From NCBI GenBank assembly GCA_041661685.1, contig JBAZTY010000001.1:64691-128690 (forward strand): DNA of 64,000 nt, given 5' to 3'. Within the stretch, counting starts at the first letter, position 1, and every line of letters begins with the position of its first letter. This document shows, in pieces, positions 48,958 to 57,699 of this stretch. The stretch comes from Patescibacteria group bacterium. Lineage in GTDB: Bacteria; Patescibacteriota; Patescibacteriia; Patescibacteriales; UBA12465. Under the pieces are notes generated by a model that saw nothing but the letters and a program-made list of their open reading frames with translations, searched no databases and was not told the DNA's origin. The position numbers and the translations under genes are program-made.

Positions 48958-50250
48958 ATGGTTAAAAATACTAAAGTGAAAAATAAGAAACCGGCCCATA
49001 AGCTGGCGTCGAAGCCGAAAGTTAAATCAGCTGCCAAGGCTAAGTCGAAAAAGAGGGCTGATAGTTTGCCGAAGAAGGCGAAGAAGAATTTTTCCAGTCA
49101 CGGCTTGAAAGGCGTTAAAGTAACGCCGGCTAGAGAGGCTAAGCCAGTTGTTAAGCCGACCGAAGAACAGCTGAAGAAGCTGATTGAGAAGGGGCGTCTG
49201 CGCGGCTTTATCACTGAAACTGAATTATTATATCTTTTCCCGGAAGTGGAAGAGTATGTTTATGAATATGATGTTTTCTTGGGAGAATTGCAGAAGAGCG
49301 GCGTCAGGATTATGGAAGATTCCGGCCGCATTCTAGACACGGCCGAGAGAAAAGCGGCCGAGCCGCCTTTGACCGGGAAGGCTTTAGCGCACCAGAACGC
49401 CCTGAACGTTGATTTGTCGAAATTAAGCGCTGATTCTATCCAGATGTATCTGAAAGAAATCGGCAAAGTGCCGCTCTTGAGCGGCGATGAAGAAGTCGAA
49501 CTCGCTAAACGCAAGGAAAAGGGCGATAAGGAAGCGGAGAAGAGGATTATCGAAGCGAATCTGCGCTTAGTCGTTTCTATCGCTAAGAAGTTCGCCGGAG
49601 CGAAGGGTATGAGCTTATTGGATTTGATTCAAGAAGGGAATATCGGCTTATTCCGCGCGGTCGAAAAATTTGAATATCGCAAAGGCTATAAGTTTTCTAC
49701 ATACGCGACTTGGTGGATACGTCAAGCGATTACGCGCGCGCTCGCTGACCAGTCTAGAACTATCCGCATCCCGGTTCATATGGTCGAAACTATCAATAAG
49801 TTTCAGCAGGTCCAGCGTAATCTTATCCAGGAATTGGGCCGCGAGCCTTTAGCTGACGAAATTGCTTCAGAGATGGGGGAAGATATCGATAAGGTCAGAT
49901 ATATCATGAAGATTTCTCAAGATACTATATCTCTTGAGACGACAATCGGTGATGATGACGAAGATTCGACTTTGGAAGATTTCATCGAAGATGTGAAGAA
50001 CGTCACCCCGGATCGCGCCGCCGCTTTGCAGCTCCTGAAAGATTACGTGAAGAATATCGTCGCTCAACTCTCGCCGCGCGAACAGAAGATTCTCGAAATG
50101 CGCTTTGGGCTGGTCGACGGCGTCGCTCATACCTTGGAAGAAGTCGGACAGGAATTTGAAGTTACGCGCGAGCGCATTCGCCAGATTGAGTCCAAGTCCC
50201 TGGAAAAGATCCGGAAGTTTAAGGGTTTGGAAAAGTTGAGGGATTATTAA
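48958..50250 (+). CDS. rpoD: Primary RNA polymerase sigma factor (sigma-70 family) with Lys-rich N-terminus
   Basis: Regions 1.2 to 4 are present: [58 protein letters not shown]. Confidence 0.94.
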
Positions 50251-50291
50251 AAAAAAGATATAATGTTAATATAATCATTAAAAATTATTTT

Positions 50292-51140
50292 ATGAAAAAA
50301 ATAATTATTTCTTTCCTAGGTTTGTCTTTATTATTTATCGCCGGCTGCAGCCGTCCCTCTGTCTTGGAAACCCAAGCTCCAGCCGCCTCGGACCAGCCGT
50401 CTCAGGAGAACGCCTCTCAAGCCCCGATTCCAGCGAAGGGCGCGGCCGCAAAAGCGGCCTTGAATGAGATTTATGGCCAGATTACGCAAGAATATAAGAT
50501 AGAAGGGAAGATCGGCCTACTGGACGAGAGAGCGGTTTTACGCGCGACGCCAGAACTTAAGACTAGAAGCTGGTGGATGACAGGAAAAAATTACAATATC
50601 ATGGTGCAGAATGACCTGGGATTTTTAGATATAAATTACGATTCTCCTAAAGATTTAGCGGATATAGCGGAAAATATTTTTGTGAGCAAGGGCTTTAAGC
50701 TTAATAAAACCAATTCCTCGGTATCTAAGGCGGATAATTCGCTGACGTATAATCCTGGAAATGACCCCGGCGGCTATATCAGGGCATATATTTTGGAAAA
50801 TGAAGAATTTTGTGTGATTACAGCCTCCGAGAATAGCTCCCCTAAGAATTTCAAAATCGGCTGCTTTAGTCTCGAAAGCCTGAATCAGGCTAGTTCGACT
50901 CAAGTGCCGTTTTTAGCAGGCCTAGAGACAGATAACCAGAAAGTAGTCGTCACTCCGATAATTTTAGGGAAGCAAGCCGCTAAGCTGAATATAGCTTATC
51001 GGATCGCCAGCAGTTCTGTTATCATGAAGAAAACCGGTAATGGCTGGAAAGAGGTATATAGAGGCGAGACGGATCCAGCTTGCAGCTTAATGACAAAGCT
51101 TGAGATTCCGAGCGAGATTTATAAGAATTGTGTTGAATAA
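50292..51140 (+). CDS. Putative lipoprotein, function unknown
   Basis: Signal peptide with lipobox LLFIAGC. 282 aa. Confidence 0.7.
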   Translation: MKKIIISFLGLSLLFIAGCSRPSVLETQAPAASDQPSQENASQAPIPAKGAAAKAALNEIYGQITQEYKIEGKIGLLDERAVLRATPELKTRSWWMTGKNYNIMVQNDLGFLDINYDSPKDLADIAENIFVSKGFKLNKTNSSVSKADNSLTYNPGNDPGGYIRAYILENEEFCVITASENSSPKNFKIGCFSLESLNQASSTQVPFLAGLETDNQKVVVTPIILGKQAAKLNIAYRIASSSVIMKKTGNGWKEVYRGETDPACSLMTKLEIPSEIYKNCVE

Positions 51141-51170
51141 ATAATAAGTTTTGATTTTATTTCCTGATAT

Positions 51171-51203
51171 AAAAATAACGCTAATATTAGCGTTATTTTT
51201 TTT
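51171..51203 (+). terminator. Intrinsic terminator after the lipoprotein gene
   Basis: ATAACGCTAATATTAGCGTTAT palindrome flanked by A-run and T-run. Confidence 0.7.
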
Positions 51204-51260
51204 GGTTACACAGATTACATATTTATTGAACTTGGTTAATTGTTGTTTATAAAAATGCTG

Positions 51261-51289
51261 TATTGACAATATTTTAAAAATGTGATACT
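51261..51289 (+). promoter_or_regulatory. Candidate promoter for the 51336 ORF
   Basis: TTGACA, 17 nt ending in TGa, TACTAT. Confidence 0.5.
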
Positions 51290-51335
51290 ATTATACCTAG
51301 CAATAGTCCTTTAAAAACAACCAAAACTAAATAAT

Positions 51336-51770
51336 ATGAAAAAGATTTATTTCATTAAGGAGCCTATGGGGAGATATTTTATTTCTCCTAGCGCCCATCA
51401 TTGCAACATAGATGGAGCCGATTGTTCTACCTGTTTGTTTCTGAAAAGCTGCGCCAATGCTTGGACAAGCAGCCCATTAATTAATAGCGTTAGATACACA
51501 AAGGAGGATGCTGAAAAAGCCATTCAAGAAAATACGTATCTTTTAAATTGTATCGTGGAGGTCGTGCCGGAAACTTTTTCTGATAAGGCTTTTGAAATTT
51601 TTGCCAGAATTGTAAAAATATTGATGTTTTGGCAGAGAGGCAAGACTTGCAGTTACTGCGGCAGCAAGCGCCTGTGGACACACAGGCGGTATGCTAATGA
51701 AGGGGGGCTGTCCTCCATTAAAGCTACGTGTGCCCGGTGTCATAAAGACGCCTGGTCTTGGAGAAGTTGA
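51336..51770 (+). CDS. Hypothetical Cys-rich protein (possible zinc ribbon)
   Basis: 144 aa. CSYCG...CARCH pair near the C-terminus plus further Cys. AT-rich. Confidence 0.6.
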   Translation: MKKIYFIKEPMGRYFISPSAHHCNIDGADCSTCLFLKSCANAWTSSPLINSVRYTKEDAEKAIQENTYLLNCIVEVVPETFSDKAFEIFARIVKILMFWQRGKTCSYCGSKRLWTHRRYANEGGLSSIKATCARCHKDAWSWRS

Positions 51771-51792
51771 TTTCTTGGAGAAGTTGATTATT

Positions 51793-51821
51793 AAAAAACG
51801 AGCCTAAAACTCGTTTTTTTT
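51793..51821 (+). terminator. Intrinsic terminator abutting the distal tRNA-derived repeat
   Basis: AAACGAG CCTAAA CTCGTTT followed by TTTTTT. The T-run ends at the first base of the 20-nt repeat. Confidence 0.65.
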
Positions 51822-51841
51822 CTTGCTCCCGGGGTCGGATT
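51822..51841. repeat. 20-nt direct repeat identical to the tRNA-Asn 3' end (distal, att-like copy)
   Basis: CTTGCTCCCGGGGTCGGATT is identical to 53382-53401. The flanking sequence (GGGGTAAATCC on the minus strand) looks like a decayed T-loop. Confidence 0.85.
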
Positions 51842-51903
51842 TACCCCTGCGCTTCGCTCCGAGGTTGATAAAGTTGGAACAAATTTAAGTAATATTTAAT
51901 CAA

Positions 51904-52362
51904 TTAAAACTTAATGAAATTAGCTATAATTAAAACAAATCCTGCCCCTAAAAGACAGCCTGCCATTTTTCCGACTGCTGATTTCAGCATAGTTCTTTCT
52001 TCTTTGATAAATTGTGAACGTAATTTTTCCGCCATCTGACCCTCAAATATACCGGCGATACCATCTGTTACAGCATTACCAACTACTCCCCCGAGAATTG
52101 CCCCTGCCACTCCCGCAAAATGTCCGCCAAATATAGCCAAGACGGCGAGAATCCCATTATCAATAATGCCGAAAAAAATATCTGGTAATGTAGATTTTAA
52201 TTTTATTTTAAAAGGTAAAAGAGAAACAAGACAAAGAAGTGCTAAAATAATCAACACTAAGCCCATCCATCTGGCGTTTTCAATAAAAAATATACTTACT
52301 GCCGTTATAATAATGCAAAGGGTCAAAATGTTTAATACTGATAAGATAAACTTTTGGCGCAT
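51904..52362 (-). CDS. Hypothetical small membrane protein with Gly-zipper segment
   Basis: 152 aa, 4 predicted TM. GGHFAGVAGAILGGVVGNAVTDGIAGI. AT-rich. Confidence 0.65.
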   Translation of the reverse strand: MRQKFILSVLNILTLCIIITAVSIFFIENARWMGLVLIILALLCLVSLLPFKIKLKSTLPDIFFGIIDNGILAVLAIFGGHFAGVAGAILGGVVGNAVTDGIAGIFEGQMAEKLRSQFIKEERTMLKSAVGKMAGCLLGAGFVLIIANFIKF

Positions 52363-52455
52363 AATATTTTTATCTTAATTTTTTAACTTTAATAATTTTT
52401 TCCATATTATTCTAATCTTAGCATCACTCGCTCTAAATTTCAATAATCCCTACTA

Positions 52456-52482
52456 AAAATAGCCCCTAAATAGGGCTATTTT
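52456..52482. terminator. Symmetric hairpin between the two islet genes
   Basis: AAAATAGCCC CTAAATA GGGCTATTTT (10 bp), with A-run and T-run on both sides. Confidence 0.45.
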
Positions 52483-52597
52483 ATGGATCGGGGTGATTGA
52501 GGGAGCCCGGACCTATTTTATGGCTGGCGGGAATGGAATTGATATTCCGAGATAGGGTAAATAAAATTGATGAGGGGCTGATGAAGTAATTAAGGGT

Positions 52598-52630
52598 AAA
52601 AATAAAAAAGGAAGTTTTTAAGGCTTCCTT
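52598..52630 (-). terminator. Intrinsic terminator of the 52644-53252 ORF (minus strand)
   Basis: The minus strand reads AAGGAAG CCTTAAAAA CTTCCTT followed by TTTTTATTTTT. Confidence 0.55.
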
Positions 52631-52643
52631 CATTTGTGTTTGG

Positions 52644-53252
52644 TTACGCGTTTTTTATTTCCTCTTGACGAGGGAAATAATTAGCCAATTTCATAAATTC
52701 TTCTTCGGTTATTTCAGTGTATTCCGGGTTGTCCCACAAAGAACATCCTTTCTCTCCAAACATGATCCATCCGTTTTTTATAAGACAGCAATCAGCTTCC
52801 TGGGGAGAAGGTTCGTTGCATAGGCCCAACGAATGCGCGTGTCCGATGATTTGGTTTTTTGGAACTGTCCCCCTTTTAAATTTTAAAAGATAAGCAGGGA
52901 AGAAGAATGAATTACACGGTGAGTCGTTAATAGTTTCTGTAAGATTTCGTGAGTAATATTCGCCCCCATCGGTAAATTTTTTTTCTAACGCCAAGTATAC
53001 TTCTGGCTGATCATTATTTTCCCATTTCCTGCAGTCAATGAATAAGAAGTTGTCATCTGTCATTTTTGGCAAAAGTTGCTTGGGGATAGCTATAGCGCTA
53101 TGACTACTAACCATTGTCCCTTTTTCCCACACTTTATTTCCTGCAAGCTCTACCGTAATTTTTCGATTATAAGGCGTGCTGATCGTTTCTTTGGTGGTTA
53201 TTATGCATTCATAATAGCCTTGTCTAAGAAAAAAAAGGTTGATTTGTGCCAT
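52644..53252 (-). CDS. Hypothetical protein
   Basis: 202-aa ORF. No recognisable motif. Several Cys/His (HAHSLGLCNE, CCLIKNG, KGCSLW). AT-rich. Confidence 0.65.
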   Translation of the reverse strand: MAQINLFFLRQGYYECIITTKETISTPYNRKITVELAGNKVWEKGTMVSSHSAIAIPKQLLPKMTDDNFLFIDCRKWENNDQPEVYLALEKKFTDGGEYYSRNLTETINDSPCNSFFFPAYLLKFKRGTVPKNQIIGHAHSLGLCNEPSPQEADCCLIKNGWIMFGEKGCSLWDNPEYTEITEEEFMKLANYFPRQEEIKNA

Positions 53253-53381
53253 TTCGTTTTCCTCCGATTTTTATGATTAATTGAAATTTTTAAAGTACAT
53301 TTGTAACTAATAACAATATCATAACAATAGATAATTGTCAATGTAATAACAAAAAATAGACTTAAAAAAGCCTATTTTATG

Positions 53382-53401
53382 CTTGCTCCCGGGGTCGGAT
53401 T
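53382..53401. repeat. 20-nt direct repeat (tRNA-proximal copy: T-loop through discriminator plus 4 nt)
   Basis: CTTGCTCCCGGGGTCGGATT is identical to 51822-51841. Confidence 0.85.
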
Positions 53402-53695
53402 CGAACCGACGACCAATTGGTTACACTTATCCACTAATTTCTTAATGGGGTGGACTATATCATCATCCGCCAAAACGGATGCGAGGCGCTTCCTGCTCTA
53501 GAATAGAGAAGTACTCCCTTTCGGGATAGTCTCTGAACCTTGCCTGAACTTCAGGCCTTGGCTGCTGATTACCTTATCCTTACGGATTTAGGCTTCCAGC
53601 AATTCACCTCGTTATTCGACCTCAATTACTTGAGGAAGCTGCGTTTAGAACTAACGTGTTCACAGCCAACTGCGCTACCGCTGCGCTACCCGGGA
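53386..53695 (-). tRNA. tRNA-Asn(GUU) interrupted in the anticodon loop by a group I intron
   Basis: Minus-strand exons are TCCCGGG TA GCGC AGCGGTA GCGC A GTTGG CTGT (53695-53662) and TAA CCAAT TGGTC GTCGG TTCGAAT CCGAC CCCGGGA G (53423-53386). Joined, they form a 72-nt cloverleaf with loop CUGUUAA, U1-A72 and G73 as in E. coli tRNA-Asn. CCA is not encoded. Confidence 0.8.
53424..53661 (-). ncRNA. Group I intron (238 nt, no ORF) within tRNA-Asn
   Basis: Conserved core strings GTTCAGAGACTA (53538-53527) and GATATAGTCC (53461-53452), with GACTAT/ATAGTC pairing (P7). GNRA hairpins CCTCAA-GTAA-TTGAGG, ATCC-GTAA-GGAT and TCCC-GAAA-GGGA. Guide sequence GCAGCU pairs with exon GGCUGU with a U-G wobble at the 5' splice site. 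The last intron base is G. Confidence 0.8.
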
Positions 53696-53830
53696 ATATT
53701 AAATTGTCCTTCAAAAAACAAAAATGCTTTAAAACATTTTATGTCTTTATTCTAGCAAATACCCGACTTATGTCAATATTAGCGTTTTCAGGCTTATTTT
53801 GGTAAAATAATAATAATTAACGAAAAAATT

Positions 53831-54265: not shown

Positions 54266-54745
54266 ATGAAAAATAATAATCTCATCAAGCTCATCGCCGC
54301 TATTCTAATCGCCGAGTCAGCGGGAATCATCGGCTCTTTGTTTACCAGACCATCCACTCCGAATTGGTACGCGACCCTAGCTAGGCCCTCTTTTAATCCG
54401 CCGTCCTGGATCTTCGCCCCGGTCTGGACCGCGCTTTTCCTGCTCATGGGCATCGCTGCTTTTCTAGTTTGGAAAAGAGGCTGGGAAAAGAGGGAAGTCA
54501 AGATAGCCTTGGGAATATTCGGCGGCCAACTAATCTTAAATATCCTCTGGTCCGCCCTCTTCTTCGGCCTGCATAGCCCGCTCGCCGCCTTTGTCGAGAT
54601 CATCATCCTCTGGCTCGCTATCCTTTGGACTATCCTAGCCTTTAGAAAAATATCGAAAACCGCGGCTTGGCTCTTAGTTCCGTATATCCTTTGGGTCAGC
54701 TTCGCCGCCGTCCTTAACTTTTTATTAATGCTATTAAATATCTGA
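54266..54745 (+). CDS. tspO: TspO/MBR family tryptophan-rich membrane protein
   Basis: 159 aa, 5 TM. PSWIFAPVWTALFLLMG and LWSALFFG are typical of TspO. Confidence 0.85.
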   Translation: MKNNNLIKLIAAILIAESAGIIGSLFTRPSTPNWYATLARPSFNPPSWIFAPVWTALFLLMGIAAFLVWKRGWEKREVKIALGIFGGQLILNILWSALFFGLHSPLAAFVEIIILWLAILWTILAFRKISKTAAWLLVPYILWVSFAAVLNFLLMLLNI

Positions 54746-56850
54746 TGCTTAATTTCTTGAGATCGCCAAGGTTTTTAAAGATTTTAGTTTTTCTCGGGCT
54801 CCTCGGCCTGGTTGTCCTCATCTTTTCGCAGCCGATAGACCTGACGACCTCTGATCTGGGGCGCCATCTCGTTAACGGCCGCGTTGTCTGGAGCAATCCG
54901 GATATTTTATTTCATAATGCCTATTCTTATACTGAGCCGGATTTTCGCTTCATCAACCATCACTGGCTCTACGGCGTCATTGTTTATTCCATTTATCGCT
55001 TAGCCGGCTTTGTCGGCCTCTCTCTTTTTAATATCCTCATTATCCTCGCCGCGTTCAGCCTGGCTTTTTATAGCGCGCGTCAGAAGATAAGCTTATACGC
55101 TCTCGATATTTTTGGACGAGCTAAGGTCGACGGTTTTTTCCTGACGAGCCTGGTATCGCTGCCGGTCATTCTTCTTTTGAGCGAGCGGGTCGAAGTCCGG
55201 CCGGAAATAATTTCCTATCTTCTTATCATATTCGTTTACGCGTTTTTGGATTCGGCCGAGGAAACAAAAAAATATCGCCGGCTTTGGTTCTTGCTGCCGC
55301 TCTTTGTCCTCTGGGCGAATATCCATATCTATTTCTTTATCGGTTTGGCGCTCGTCGGCTTCAAGGCCACCGCGGCTTTTATTGGCGCCCTGATGGAGAA
55401 AGAGAAGAACTCGCTTCGCCGGTTATTATCAGCTTGGCGCACTAGCCGTCTCTGGCTAACCCTCTTTAGCGCTTCGGTCTTAGCCTGTCTCATTAATCCT
55501 AATACTTGGCGCGGTCTGATTTATCCTTTTAATATCTTTCAGAATTACGGTTATGAAATTGCGGAGAATAAATCAGTTTTTTTTCTGGATCATCTGACCG
55601 TCGATCATAATTTTTTTATTTTTAAGCTAGTCGGCGCGTTGCTCTTGATAAGCTGGGTGCTATATTTCTCTAAGCGCTCCAGCCGCGCCCGCTTTCAGGA
55701 CCGCCTCGCCGATATATTTCTTAGTCTTCTTGTTAGCGGCCTAGCTATCTTTTCCTCTCGTAATATCTCCTTGTTCGGGCTGATTAGCCTGATCCTTATC
55801 AGCGCGAATATGGCGCCGGTCTTGATAAATATCAAGGATAAGGACGCCGCGCGCTTAAGTTTGTGGCGCCGTTTTTTTGTTTCTCCTTTTCCTCTTATCC
55901 ATTCCTATGTCCTAATCTTCCTCCTTATTCTTATCGCTTCCTCTTTTTGGTATCTTCGCGCCGATGCCCGCCGCGATAACCATCTGATCAGGAATAGCTT
56001 CGGTTTAGGCTTGCGGGCCGGCAATGAAGCTTCAGCTGCTTTTTTTAAGGAAAAGAACCTGAGCGGCCCGATATTCAATAATTATGATATCGGTAGCGCC
56101 CTCATCTTCTGGCGCTATTCTCAAGAGAAAGTTTTTGTCGATAATCGCCCGGAAGCTTATTCCGATGATTTCTTCAATTCAGTCTATAAACCGATGCAGA
56201 GCGAGGCGGCGAAATGGGAGGAATATTCTCAGATTTATGATTTCAAGACAGTCTACTTCGCTCATACCGACGGTACGCCCTGGGCGCAGCAATTTCTCGC
56301 TCGCATCTTGCAGGACGGGAAATGGCGCCTGGCTTATTTTGACGCCTACGCGGTCATCTTGATAAATACGGATAAATATAGTCCGGAGGAAGTAAAAGCC
56401 CTGAGCTTGGAAAAATGGGCTCTTAAGAGCGGGCTGAGAGAGCTGGCGGCCGGAGCGAGTACGGCGACGCAGTTCCGCCTAGCCAATCTAGCGCGCTTGG
56501 CAGGCATGCCCGAACTGGCTGAGGAAATCTATCGGGAAATATTACTCGTTTTTCCCGACCAAGCGCGAACCCTTTCCGAGCTTGCGAGCCTTTATGCCGG
56601 TTATGGCGATTCTGTTAATTTGCGGCAGTCTCTATATTATTATCAGCGCGCCCTAAGCGTTGGTTCGCGCCTGCCGGGAATATATAATGAGCTGGGATTG
56701 GTTTATTGGCGGCTGGGAGAATATAAAAAAGCCGAAAGCGCTTGGCGCTCGGCTTTGCAGCGAGAACGGAAGAATATTCATGCTTTGTATTATCTAAATC
56801 AGGTCGAGGTTTTAAGGAGGGAGGGGGAATTACCCAGCAATCAAGAATGA
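54745..56850 (+). CDS. Large polytopic membrane protein with C-terminal TPR repeats (possible GT-C type glycosyltransferase)
   Basis: 701 aa. More than 10 TM in the N-terminal 400 aa. C-terminal TPR-like repeats (YYYQRALSVG...LGLVYWRLGEYKKAESAWRSAL). The start overlaps the tspO stop by 1 nt. Confidence 0.6.
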   Translation: MLNFLRSPRFLKILVFLGLLGLVVLIFSQPIDLTTSDLGRHLVNGRVVWSNPDILFHNAYSYTEPDFRFINHHWLYGVIVYSIYRLAGFVGLSLFNILIILAAFSLAFYSARQKISLYALDIFGRAKVDGFFLTSLVSLPVILLLSERVEVRPEIISYLLIIFVYAFLDSAEETKKYRRLWFLLPLFVLWANIHIYFFIGLALVGFKATAAFIGALMEKEKNSLRRLLSAWRTSRLWLTLFSASVLACLINPNTWRGLIYPFNIFQNYGYEIAENKSVFFLDHLTVDHNFFIFKLVGALLLISWVLYFSKRSSRARFQDRLADIFLSLLVSGLAIFSSRNISLFGLISLILISANMAPVLINIKDKDAARLSLWRRFFVSPFPLIHSYVLIFLLILIASSFWYLRADARRDNHLIRNSFGLGLRAGNEASAAFFKEKNLSGPIFNNYDIGSALIFWRYSQEKVFVDNRPEAYSDDFFNSVYKPMQSEAAKWEEYSQIYDFKTVYFAHTDGTPWAQQFLARILQDGKWRLAYFDAYAVILINTDKYSPEEVKALSLEKWALKSGLRELAAGASTATQFRLANLARLAGMPELAEEIYREILLVFPDQARTLSELASLYAGYGDSVNLRQSLYYYQRALSVGSRLPGIYNELGLVYWRLGEYKKAESAWRSALQRERKNIHALYYLNQVEVLRREGELPSNQE

Positions 56851-56858
56851 TTCGGAAA

Positions 56859-57539
56859 TCAATTAAGTCTTTCTTTGAATAAGGCCAGTATTGCTGTCAG
56901 TCCGTCGCGCGGGCTGATTTTTTTTCCGTCCTTATAGCCGCGGCGATTATAGCTTATGGGCATCTCTTTTATTCTGTAGCCGTTCTTAAGGAGCTGGGCC
57001 GTAATGATCGGCTCGATCTCGAAACGTTCGCCGCTAAGCCGTATCTCTTTCAGAGCGGCCGCCGGAATCAGCTTGAAACAGGTTTCCATGTCGGTCAGAT
57101 TCGAACCGAAGAGGAGATTGGTCAGGCCGGTCAAGAATCCGTTGATTGTGCGGTGGAAACTAGATCCGGGCCTGTCTAAAAAGCGGGAGCCATAAAGCGC
57201 GCATCTGCCTGCGCCTTCTTTAATCCCTTTAAACATCGGAACGATATCGGCGGGGTCATATTCGATATCGGCGTCGCAGATGATGAAATAGTCGCCGCTG
57301 ATCTTTTCCAAACCGCGCCGGATAGCCGCGCCTTTGCCGCGATTGATCGGCTGACTGATTAATCTGAAATCATAGTTTGATTTCAATCCCGCCAGTATTT
57401 CCGGAGTCTTGTCTGACGACCCATCGTCGATGACAATAACCTCTTTTTCAAGAGGCAGCGCGAAGATGCGCGGCAGGGAAATGGCCACGGTCCGCTCTTC
57501 ATTATATATCGGAACGATGATTGAGATTTTTGATTCCAT
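56859..57539 (-). CDS. Family 2 glycosyltransferase (polyprenol-phosphate sugar synthase-like)
   Basis: ISIIVPIYNEE...VIVIDDGSSDKT...ICDADIEYDP (DxD). Confidence 0.85.
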   Translation of the reverse strand: MESKISIIVPIYNEERTVAISLPRIFALPLEKEVIVIDDGSSDKTPEILAGLKSNYDFRLISQPINRGKGAAIRRGLEKISGDYFIICDADIEYDPADIVPMFKGIKEGAGRCALYGSRFLDRPGSSFHRTINGFLTGLTNLLFGSNLTDMETCFKLIPAAALKEIRLSGERFEIEPIITAQLLKNGYRIKEMPISYNRRGYKDGKKISPRDGLTAILALFKERLN

Positions 57540-57699
57540 ATCTTTGGTAATTCTTTAGTAATTATAACTTAGATATTGTTATTTTGCCTAATACTCGCTA
57601 TTGACAAGCATCTGTCAATATGATATTTTTTGATGTTAAAATATAAACGTTTAACCAGTAAAATAGATCTTTAATAATAACAACTAAAAACATAAACCA

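Follow-up and report, generated by a model that had tools for sequence, protein, structure and literature searches.

The islet behind the tRNA-Asn gene

The stretch of DNA analysed here, referred to as the window, comprises 64,000 nucleotides (nt) from a Patescibacteria group bacterium (GenBank assembly GCA_041661685.1, contig JBAZTY010000001.1, positions 64,691 to 128,690 of the forward strand). It contains an AT-rich islet of about 1.5 kb that is bounded on one side by a transfer RNA (tRNA) gene for asparagine and on the other by a repeat of the 3′ end of that gene. An earlier note, made from the letters of the window, had interpreted this layout as the attL/attR (attachment site) signature of an element that had integrated into a tRNA gene. 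The repeat is the 20-mer CTTGCTCCCGGGGTCGGATT, which occurs exactly and in direct orientation at 51822-51841 and at 53382-53401, 1,560 nt apart, as had been claimed. The 20-mer has no third copy in the window, even when three mismatches are allowed; 0.01 occurrences were expected by chance, and none of 100 shuffled sequences contained two.

The copy nearest the tRNA gene (the proximal copy) combines the 3′-terminal 16 nt of the tRNA (53386-53401, AAT of the T-loop through to the discriminator G) with the trailer CAAG (53382-53385). The repeat had been described as running from the T-loop to the discriminator plus four further nucleotides. This holds for the discriminator, the trailer and the last three bases of the T-loop (AAT), but not for its first four bases (TTCG), which are unrepeated.

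The tRNA gene itself is split. No tRNA was called in the window by ARAGORN, and a group I intron (Rfam RF00028) was found on the minus strand at 53431-53740 with a score of 84.5 bits. When 238 nt (53424-53661) were excised in silico, ARAGORN called a 73-nt tRNA-Asn(GTT) with CTGT joined to TAA at the splice junction. The junction was confirmed by a related genome (locus L005; GCA_964517325.1), in which two exons identical to those of the window are joined without an intron. The gene was therefore placed at 53695..53386 on the minus strand, and the earlier statement that the target tRNA is intron-bearing proved correct. A group I intron at position 35/36 of tRNA-Asn in Patescibacteria, in a gene missed by standard tools, has been published, and the gene in the window fits that description, both in the place of the intron and in the blindness of ARAGORN to the gene (Nakagawa et al. 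2026, PMC13011429).

A set of 168 loci (numbered with the prefix L, as are the individual contigs discussed below) was used for comparison. One genome per species was scanned for the exact 29-nt 3′ half of the window's tRNA-Asn, which yielded 119 genome loci, mostly from Patescibacteria, and metagenomes of the JGI were scanned for the 20-mer, which yielded 49 metagenome loci. An intron of about 225-320 nt was present at the same place in at least 19 of the 119 related loci, and one of 585 nt was present in L035; the intron-bearing loci are L014, L016, L017, L021, L022, L035, L044-L046, L050, L057, L075, L089, L091, L097, L098, L104, L112, L114 and L125. The intron is unrelated to the repeat, as copies of the site are also found behind intron-less tRNA genes.

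The interior of the islet (51842-53381, 1,540 bp) has a guanine-plus-cytosine (GC) content of 35.3%, against 43.7 +/- 3.2% for 1,540-nt windows, and lies in the lowest 0.3%, so that the islet is indeed richer in AT than its flanks. It carries two open reading frames (ORFs) of 202 and 152 amino acids (aa), both on the minus strand (Table 1). This is the strand opposite to that of nearly all of the roughly 60 neighbouring genes, which include the ribosomal protein operons, dnaG and rpoD on the plus strand. The entire 64 kb was searched by tblastn with seven recombinases from relatives (four tyrosine and three serine enzymes) and gave no match, and neither islet ORF matched Pfam; the earlier description of two minus-strand ORFs and no recombinase was thus upheld. 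A 144-aa ORF that converges on the islet from beyond the second (distal) copy of the repeat was considered as a possible integrase remnant, and was rejected because it lacks similarity to any recombinase.

Use of the tRNA-Asn end as a site in other Patescibacteria

Recombinases are encoded directly behind the same tRNA in about 35 loci when all sets are taken together. Tyrosine integrases (PF00589, E values of 1e-30 to 1e-32) lie just downstream of the tRNA in five of the 119 genome loci (L011, L026, L027, L084 and L109). The integrase gene is 41 nt from the full tRNA in L027, L109 and L084; four of the five are convergent with the tRNA, and that of L011 is on the strand of the tRNA. Large serine recombinases (PF00239 + PF07508 + PF13408), convergent with the tRNA, were found in about 20 of the 119 (including L093, L095, L108, L020, L034, L086 and L096). 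In the genome loci the recombinase genes lie 0.1-1.5 kb behind the tRNA. Between nine and eleven of the 49 metagenome loci also have a recombinase at the site, nine of them serine recombinases, and two IMG/VR contigs (L129 and L130) start at the tRNA end and run into a large serine recombinase gene.

About half of the metagenome loci contain a full tRNA-Asn gene with the CAAG trailer; the other half contain partial copies preceded by sequence that is not tRNA. Over all loci 34 partial copies were catalogued, which are direct and downstream wherever the tRNA is on the same contig, and a search of the 119 genome loci with the tRNA end found no inverted or upstream copies. Counted back from the discriminator, identity with the tRNA extends over exactly 20 nt, to the first base of the T-loop, in 18 of the 34, over 21-25 nt in eight and over 13-19 nt in the rest; the distal copy of the window and three copies in L181 share 16 nt. 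A conserved left flank, YTAAAAATCNNNGTTTTGTT, characterises one family of partial copies. Its members in L152 and L145 lie 4-7 kb from an integrase of the L027 type at the start of the contig (92% identical to that type in L152), and these copies are therefore the far ends of complete tyrosine-integrase elements.

Two pairs of contigs provide direct evidence of recent recombination at this sequence. L176 (1-499) and L180 (615-1113) are 100% identical over the 499 nt that end with the site and unrelated thereafter, L176 continuing with a plain terminator and L180 with a serine-recombinase element. L154 (1-258) and L183 (14-271) are 98% identical over 258 nt and diverge at the same point. Both pairs represent a clean presence/absence polymorphism. 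These comparisons show the tRNA-Asn end to be a real recombination site in Patescibacteria, used by both tyrosine integrases and large serine recombinases, and the view of the repeat as an att-type duplicate of the tRNA 3′ end is borne out by the recombinases that use this site in related genomes.

Partial copies elsewhere bound islands of 0.1 to ~9 kb. As the loci are at most 8-14 kb long, complete elements with a recombinase would seldom fit between two site copies, and the sample is biased accordingly. Intervals without a recombinase were found in L069 (1.95 kb between copies, with two small ORFs), L162 (5.1 kb, with a MarR gene and an efflux pump), L154 (3.7 kb), L174 (three copies, 1.9 and 2.7 kb apart, with a TspO-like gene), L183 (2.4 kb, with a NUDIX-like gene past the second copy), L140 (0.13 and 1.7 kb) and L181 (0.1 and 0.58 kb); in L124, L035, L127 and L051 the copies are under 0.2 kb apart and enclose no gene. 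The islet of the window belongs to this class of recombinase-less intervals bounded by site copies, which is common in these loci.

A further kind of unit was observed behind tRNA-Asn in L181 (100-810) and also in L155, L071, L124, L035 and L051. These short units combine an imperfect inverted copy of the tRNA end with a direct one, and the hairpins that they form are ~75-95 nt long (z = -3.6 to -3.8 in L181). Of the three tRNA-end copies in L181, two belong to hairpin units, and these units flank a small GIY-YIG ORF; in L069 a GIY-YIG ORF overlaps the 5′ side of the tRNA. Five loci with short repeat units were compared with Rfam under a permissive threshold, and the units matched none of its RNA families. 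Units of the L181 type are not explained by a simple integrase model.

Composite structure of the islet

The structure of the islet was resolved by comparison with L005, the genome whose tRNA-Asn lacks the intron. Its RpoD is 97% identical to that of the window (417/431), its flanks share 80-87% nucleotide identity, and its gene order is the same, with aspartyl-tRNA synthetase, dnaG, rpoD and a 282-aa lipoprotein on one side and NUDIX and TspO genes on the other. Behind the tRNA, L005 has a different trailer and an extra ORF of ~750 nt. It then becomes homologous to 53342..52600 of the window (79% identity), a segment that includes a promoter, a 199-aa homologue of the 202-aa protein (75% amino-acid identity) and a terminator, and this segment, referred to here as cassette 1, is followed by an unrelated convergent 198-aa gene. 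The 152-aa and 144-aa genes are both absent from L005, as is any second tRNA-end copy. L005 therefore lacks the distal half of the islet, yet it does not represent a clean empty site.

About 60 nt past 52600, where the homology stops, the window contains tandem 25-nt repeats (52476-52500 and 52513-52537) that are 76% identical and both end in CATAAAATAG. The second repeat comes after TCAATTCCATTCCCGCCAGC, which agrees with the site TCGAATCCGACCCCGGGAGC in 13 of 20 nt; two of 300 shuffles of the islet reached this alignment score. With moderate confidence, the sequence at 52476-52542 may be read as decayed site copies that mark the border between two cassettes.

The 10-nt string CTATTTTATG occurs three times, at 53372-53381, 52476-52485 and 52513-52522, as had been reported (0.24 occurrences expected; none of 100 shuffles gave three). 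It had been proposed to represent either vestigial att flanks or recombinase arm sites. The first role is retained and the second is not, because each occurrence forms the first 10 nt of a terminator hairpin that trails a site copy (CATAAAATAGG...). The trailer of the proximal copy, CATAAAATAGGCTTTTTTAAGTCTATTTTTTGTTAT, is homologous to the trailers of full tRNAs in L089, L126, L098, L146, L168, L172 and L177, and also to those of partial copies in L141, L144, L145, L154, L157, L158, L174 and L185; the trailer of L069 is likewise among the homologues of the terminator hairpin at 53346..53381. The hairpin at 52455-52485, with which cassette 2 opens, is 94% identical over 35 nt to one that follows the partial tRNA copy of L152, and it recurs after the end of an element in L191.

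The islet had been taken for a single element bracketed by attL and attR, and this could not be sustained, as L005 shares 53342..52600 alone, without the 152-aa gene or the repeat. A single recent insertion of one 1.54-kb element into an empty tRNA-Asn site would account for the perfect repeats, the low GC content and the opposite strand of the islet. It is nevertheless highly improbable: the proximal half has ~79% nucleotide identity with a genome that has neither the repeat nor the distal half, decayed internal site copies appear to divide the islet, and the distributions of the two genes differ entirely, with three homologues of one and at least 789 of the other.

Table 1. Features of the tRNA-Asn locus and of the islet, listed from the tRNA promoter towards the distal copy (positions in the window).
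Feature	Position	Strand	Details
tRNA promoter-like site	53749..53776	minus	TTGACA-16-TAGAAT, 11/12 matches; upstream region conserved in several relatives
tRNA-Asn(GTT)	53386..53695	minus	exon 1 53662-53695, group I intron 53424-53661, exon 2 53386-53423; intron at anticodon-loop position 35/36
Proximal site copy	53382..53401	minus	16-nt tRNA 3′ end AATCCGACCCCGGGAG and trailer CAAG
Terminator hairpin after tRNA	53346..53381	minus	CATAAAATAGGCTTTTTTAAGTCTATTTTTTGTTAT; contains the first CTATTTTATG; homologues trail tRNA-Asn copies in other loci
Promoter-like site, 202-aa gene	53313..53341	minus	TTGACA-17-TATTGT; conserved in L005 and L089
202-aa ORF, cassette 1	52644..53252	minus	two rare domains, ~1-120 and 121-195
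Terminator hairpin, 202-aa gene	52608..52630	minus	homology with L005 stops at 52600
Putative decayed site copy	52512..52542	minus	TCAATTCCATTCCCGCCAGC against TCGAATCCGACCCCGGGAGC (13/20), then CATAAAATAGG (second CTATTTTATG)
Second putative decayed site copy	52476..52500	minus	25-nt repeat of 52513-52537, 76% identical; ends in CATAAAATAG (third CTATTTTATG)
Terminator-type hairpin opening cassette 2	52455..52485	minus	AAAATAGCCC-TATTTAG-GGGCTATTTT
Promoter-like site, 152-aa gene	52415..52443	minus	TTGAAA-17-TAAGAT, with TG; upstream region conserved in L044
152-aa membrane protein gene, cassette 2	51904..52362	minus	five predicted helices
Putative right-end flank, 152-aa stop codon to distal copy	51842..51903	minus	matches in L181 and L189
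Distal partial copy of tRNA-Asn 3′ end and CAAG, attR-like direct repeat	51822..51841	minus	
Terminator hairpin AAAAAACGAGCCTAAAACTCGTTTTTT	51793..51821	no strand	also the terminator of the convergent 144-aa gene; probable native trailer of the tRNA

The distal copy and its flanks

The sequence GGGGTAAATCC beside the distal copy had been noted and considered a decayed T-loop. It is present, but the distal copy together with its left flank (51818-51853) shows 97% identity, across 36 nt, to copies in L181, an unrelated contig from a different organism. The step from GGGGTA to AATCC is therefore a conserved junction rather than a T-loop that has drifted. On the right flank, the hairpin AAAAAAAACGAGTTTTAGGCTCGTTTTTT resembles the trailer beside the full tRNA in L181, L155 and L071, and an alignment of the distal copy and its trailer with the full tRNA end and trailer of L181 and L155 has 85.7% identity over 49 nt. 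This likeness fits the classical model of integration, in which the trailer that the tRNA first had stays with the displaced copy.

Other functions for the distal copy were also considered. A tRNA-like minihelix or other RNA gene formed by the copy and its flank was rejected, as the sequence folds no better than shuffled versions of it (z = -1.0). Nor is there a palindrome of the attC type at the distal copy, where just a 5-bp stem was found (z = -1.0), or an integrase in the window. Next to the terminator that is shared with the convergent gene, a perfect 17-nt tandem duplication (two copies of TCTTGGAGAAGTTGATT, 51756-51789) spans the stop codon of the 144-aa ORF.

The two cargo genes

The 202-aa protein is identical to the hypothetical protein WC719_00680 (MFA6194246.1, MFA6529310.1), encoded on a contig of 433,852 nt, and a set of 5.8 billion clustered proteins contained just two relatives. 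When 1.84 billion representatives were searched with a profile, 31 hits were obtained (among them P0124-P0152). The protein joins an N-terminal domain (~120 aa) to a C-terminal one (~75 aa), each of which occurs elsewhere as a separate small protein (~120 and ~80 aa, respectively). It is conceivable, from this arrangement, that a two-gene module such as a toxin-antitoxin pair lies behind the two domains. Ten remote relatives of the protein had no match in Pfam, and searches of Pfam, PHROGs, PADLOC and NCBIfam with the 202-, 152- and 144-aa proteins gave no usable match; the sole library matches were weak ones, to TMEM65 for the 152-aa protein (E = 0.01) and to a zinc ribbon for the 144-aa protein. 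An AlphaFold model of the 202-aa protein, built from three sequences, had a predicted local distance difference test score (pLDDT) of 32 and was unusable.

The 152-aa protein is far more widely distributed, with at least 789 homologues at E <= 0.001. The best 120 of these (P0004-P0123) are 76-94% identical to it, and nearly all are exactly 152 aa long. They are from Falkow-, Magasanik-, Kuenen-, Kerfeld- and Peregrinibacteria, and the family is unusually uniform across several classes of Patescibacteria. The model of the protein has five predicted membrane helices (pLDDT 69), and its comparison with the PDB gave no fold match at E <= 0.001. The neighbours of the homologues vary: an aldo-keto reductase and a DUF4153 protein accompany them in L132-135, and other sets of genes in L136 and L186-188. 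In L044 the homologue lies directly behind tRNA-Asn. In L189 and L190 an 88%-identical homologue (P0009 in L189) is the last gene of an element that also encodes a 525-aa large serine recombinase and a Rep protein (PF23343), and the 3′ flank of the gene in L189 shares ATATT..TTAAA..TTCCAACT with 51856-51893 of the window. Given the terminal position of the homologue in L189 and the related 3′ flank, cassette 2 is plausibly the right end of a serine-recombinase-type element like that of L189.

The elements with this cargo were also compared with each other. In L189 (6460-6520) and L191 (1488-1545) the element with the 152-aa homologue ends in ...ATCCCACCCTCTCCGCAG, beyond which the two sequences diverge. 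This end resembles the 3′ end of a different tRNA, and the same cargo gene may thus be carried on elements with another target.

Origin of the islet

The most probable explanation for these observations is that elements integrated site-specifically at the tRNA-Asn end more than once and later lost their recombinase modules, leaving the islet as a composite remnant. The attachment site in Patescibacteria extends from the T-loop to a few bases past the discriminator and is used by elements with a tyrosine integrase or a large serine recombinase. An incoming element supplies both a tRNA end and a terminator of its own, whereby the tRNA stays intact and the old end, with the old terminator, is pushed downstream. 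At least two such integrations and the subsequent deletion of every recombinase module would leave the order seen in the window: cassette 1 (terminator, promoter, 202-aa gene and terminator), the two putative decayed site copies, cassette 2 (terminator hairpin, promoter, 152-aa gene and the right-end flank of an element), and finally the intact 20-nt copy with what would be the original terminator of the tRNA. In this scheme 51822-51841 would be the displaced attR-type copy left by integration into tRNA-Asn.

The mobility of the islet was investigated through the junctions that its excision would produce. The predicted empty site has the junction TTCGAATCCGACCCCGGGAGCAAGAAAAAAAACGAG, that is, ...GGTTCGAATCCGACCCCGGGAGCAAG joined to AAAAAAAACGAGTTTTAGG, and the predicted circle has ...GCGCAGGGGTAAATCCGACCCCGGGAGCAAG joined to CATAAAATAGGCTTTT. 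No circle junction was found among the 49 metagenome loci that hold the 20-mer, and IMG/VR contained no match for the 20-mer or for either cargo protein. The earlier proposal that the islet is mobilised in trans was not supported, as neither an empty site nor a circular junction was found in the collections searched.

Contigs from Logan required separate consideration. L001 and L002 start at 53412 and 53413, and L003 and L004 break at 53678 and 53714; short-read assemblies thus break within the tRNA on both sides of the intron. The starts of L001 and L002 were considered as a possible sign of an empty-site variant, and this was rejected. The exons, as well as exon 2 with CAAG (33 nt), are common to many co-occurring species, and a shared stretch of 33 nt exceeds the 31-mers with which the assembler works. 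The shared stretch alone therefore breaks the assembly graph. Most metagenome assemblies would miss islands of this kind through such breaks.

A different reading is that the islet is a live, miniature cis-mobilisable element, both copies of which are still recognised by a recombinase encoded elsewhere that excises and re-integrates it. The two site copies match perfectly over 20 nt, arrays of recombinase-less cassettes delimited by this site exist in L174, L183 and L154, closely related contigs exchange the sequence beyond the site, and the flank and copy that are 97% identical in the unrelated L181 suggest a shared functional end. This reading is nonetheless doubtful. None of the collections searched contained an empty site, a circular junction or the islet at a second location, cassette 1 is fixed at the same place in L005, which has no distal copy, four T-loop bases retained by most other copies are missing from the distal one, and there is no recombinase within 64 kb.

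A more far-reaching reading, offered as speculation with a low probability of being correct, is that the region behind tRNA-Asn may be a gene-capture platform on which single-gene cassettes move between genomes. Each cassette would consist of a gene with a terminator, a promoter and a tRNA-end copy of 16-24 nt, and the shuffling would be done in trans by tyrosine or serine recombinases encoded on larger sister elements. The islet of the window would then be a still-exchangeable array of two cassettes.

Several observations weigh against the composite remnant. All contigs that encode the exact 144-, 152- or 202-aa protein (two Logan samples, one ENA assembly and metagenome-assembled genomes) are occupied, so that no empty site was found among them, and the exact predicted empty-site junction is absent from the JGI metagenome contigs. 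No remnant of a recombinase is detectable in the 64-kb window, and the loss of the recombinase genes, like the order of events, is thus deduced rather than seen. The resemblance of the internal repeats to the site is only moderately significant (~1-2% by chance), and most homologues of the 152-aa protein are found in ordinary chromosomal surroundings. The distal copy shares just 16 nt with the tRNA, without the TTCG that 26 of the 34 partial copies keep, and a perfect 20/20 match is somewhat unexpected for an old scar that is not under selection. The similarity between the distal trailer and L181 depends on one short hairpin, and the assignment of one trailer as native and the other as element-borne is not secure, as the terminator beside the full tRNA also follows many partial copies elsewhere.

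Even so, a composite remnant is preferred, an ordinary one and probably immobile. From these results we infer that the islet no longer moves, or does so at best with the help of an enzyme encoded elsewhere.

Genome neighbourhood

In about 50 of the 119 relatives rpoD lies just upstream of tRNA-Asn on the same strand, and dnaG-rpoD-tRNA-Asn is the usual order; it is also that of L137, the RpoD of which is 97% identical to that of the window. In the window (48958-53695) and in L005 the tRNA and the island are convergent with rpoD, and the NUDIX gene is divergent from the tRNA. The divergent NUDIX-tRNA pairing is shared by L031 and L162, and L162 keeps rpoD upstream on the strand of the tRNA. As the orientation in the window and L005 differs from the usual order, the tRNA block has been inverted relative to rpoD. 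An attempt to rebuild the inversion from repeats at its boundaries found nothing convincing and left the breakpoints undefined.

The inversion bears on the origin of the repeat, which might have arisen without an integrase by local rearrangement, either as a partial duplication of the tRNA gene or as a side effect when the tRNA region was turned round with respect to rpoD. Some rearrangement has evidently occurred, given that the tRNA is convergent with rpoD here and in L005 and on the same strand in about 50 of 119 relatives, and the hairpin units with inverted and direct tRNA-end copies (L181 and L124) are not required by the integrase model. Rearrangement as the source of the repeat is nevertheless quite improbable, because the copy is direct and not inverted, its boundary falls in the T-loop like those of dozens of recombinase-linked copies, its flank recurs in another organism, no other part of a tRNA adjoins it, and L005 has the inversion but not the repeat.

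On the other side of the tRNA, 2.86 kb of the window (54739-57600) encode a 701-aa tetratricopeptide repeat membrane protein and a convergent family-2 glycosyltransferase. This segment has no counterpart in L005, where its flanks are 3 nt apart, and it is a second insertion or deletion close to the tRNA.

Relation to known systems and significance

A T-loop class of crossover sites in islands that target genes for tRNA and transfer-messenger RNA (tmRNA) was reportedly distinguished by K. P. Williams in Nucleic Acids Res in 2002. The islet has in common with islands at tRNA and tmRNA 3′ ends a direct repeat that starts in the T-loop and keeps the tRNA intact, AT-rich content of foreign appearance, and integrases beside the tRNA in sister elements. 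It differs from them in that it has no integrase, excisionase or any other mobility gene and is a mosaic of two single-gene cassettes; in addition, the host belongs to the Patescibacteria and the target tRNA has a group I intron.

A close parallel is provided by the ssrA islands of Dehalococcoides, which have a 20-bp direct repeat of the 3′ end of the RNA gene, an insertion point in the T-loop, tandem stacking and a serine recombinase on the reverse strand beside attL; some lack the integration module and have been discussed as possible cis-mobilisable or fixed elements (McMurdie et al. 2011, PMC3146451). The length of the repeat, the T-loop, the stacking and the members without a recombinase are all shared with the site described here. 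The Dehalococcoides islands differ in their target (tmRNA), their size (10-30 kb) and their six-gene integration module, whereas the present islet lies at tRNA-Asn, measures 1.5 kb and has no such module.

The tycheposons of Prochlorococcus are tRNA-anchored islands with tyrosine or, less often, large serine recombinases, and they form tandem stacks split by partial tRNAs, with decayed remnants and dispersed partial tRNAs (Hackl et al., bioRxiv 10.1101/2020.12.28.424599). A streamlined genome, anchoring on a tRNA, both types of recombinase, stacks separated by partial tRNAs and remnants are features of the present site as well, a likeness of layout. Tycheposons often carry replication genes; the islet of the window carries none, and a Rep protein was found solely in the distant element of L189.

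The concept of cis-mobilisable elements (CIMEs), which comes from ICESt1 and ICESt3 of Streptococcus, has been applied to the Dehalococcoides islands (PMC3146451). Like the islet, CIMEs are stretches flanked by attL and attR, without recombination or transfer genes, that lie next to integrase-bearing elements or derive from them by accretion and deletion. The islet consists of DNA without recombination genes between two att-like copies, as in a CIME, although its distal copy lacks the TTCG kept by 26 of 34. The mobility of CIMEs has been demonstrated experimentally and requires a cognate element in the same cell.

Integron cassettes are also short, hold one or two genes, and each end in a repeated recombination site, an arrangement comparable to the arrays of L174 and L183. 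They differ in that the site here is the 3′ end of a tRNA rather than an attC palindrome, there is no IntI/attI platform, and each cassette has its own promoter and terminator. If the gene-capture reading were true, the platform would resemble an integron anchored on a tRNA.

By itself the islet is a routine integration scar, which adds one case to the known islands at tRNA ends; the more interesting by-product of the analysis is the clade-wide pattern at tRNA-Asn. The tiny genomes of Patescibacteria are usually thought to be poor in mobile DNA. In these bacteria tRNA-Asn is a busy integration hot spot, usually situated just after dnaG-rpoD and often split by an intron, where two unrelated types of recombinase and stacked, small, recombinase-less cassettes meet at one site. 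As the intron conceals the tRNA from standard tools, islands of this kind are overlooked in annotation. The site offers a sequence-defined place to seek horizontal gene flow in uncultured bacteria, together with candidate att sites and serine integrases.

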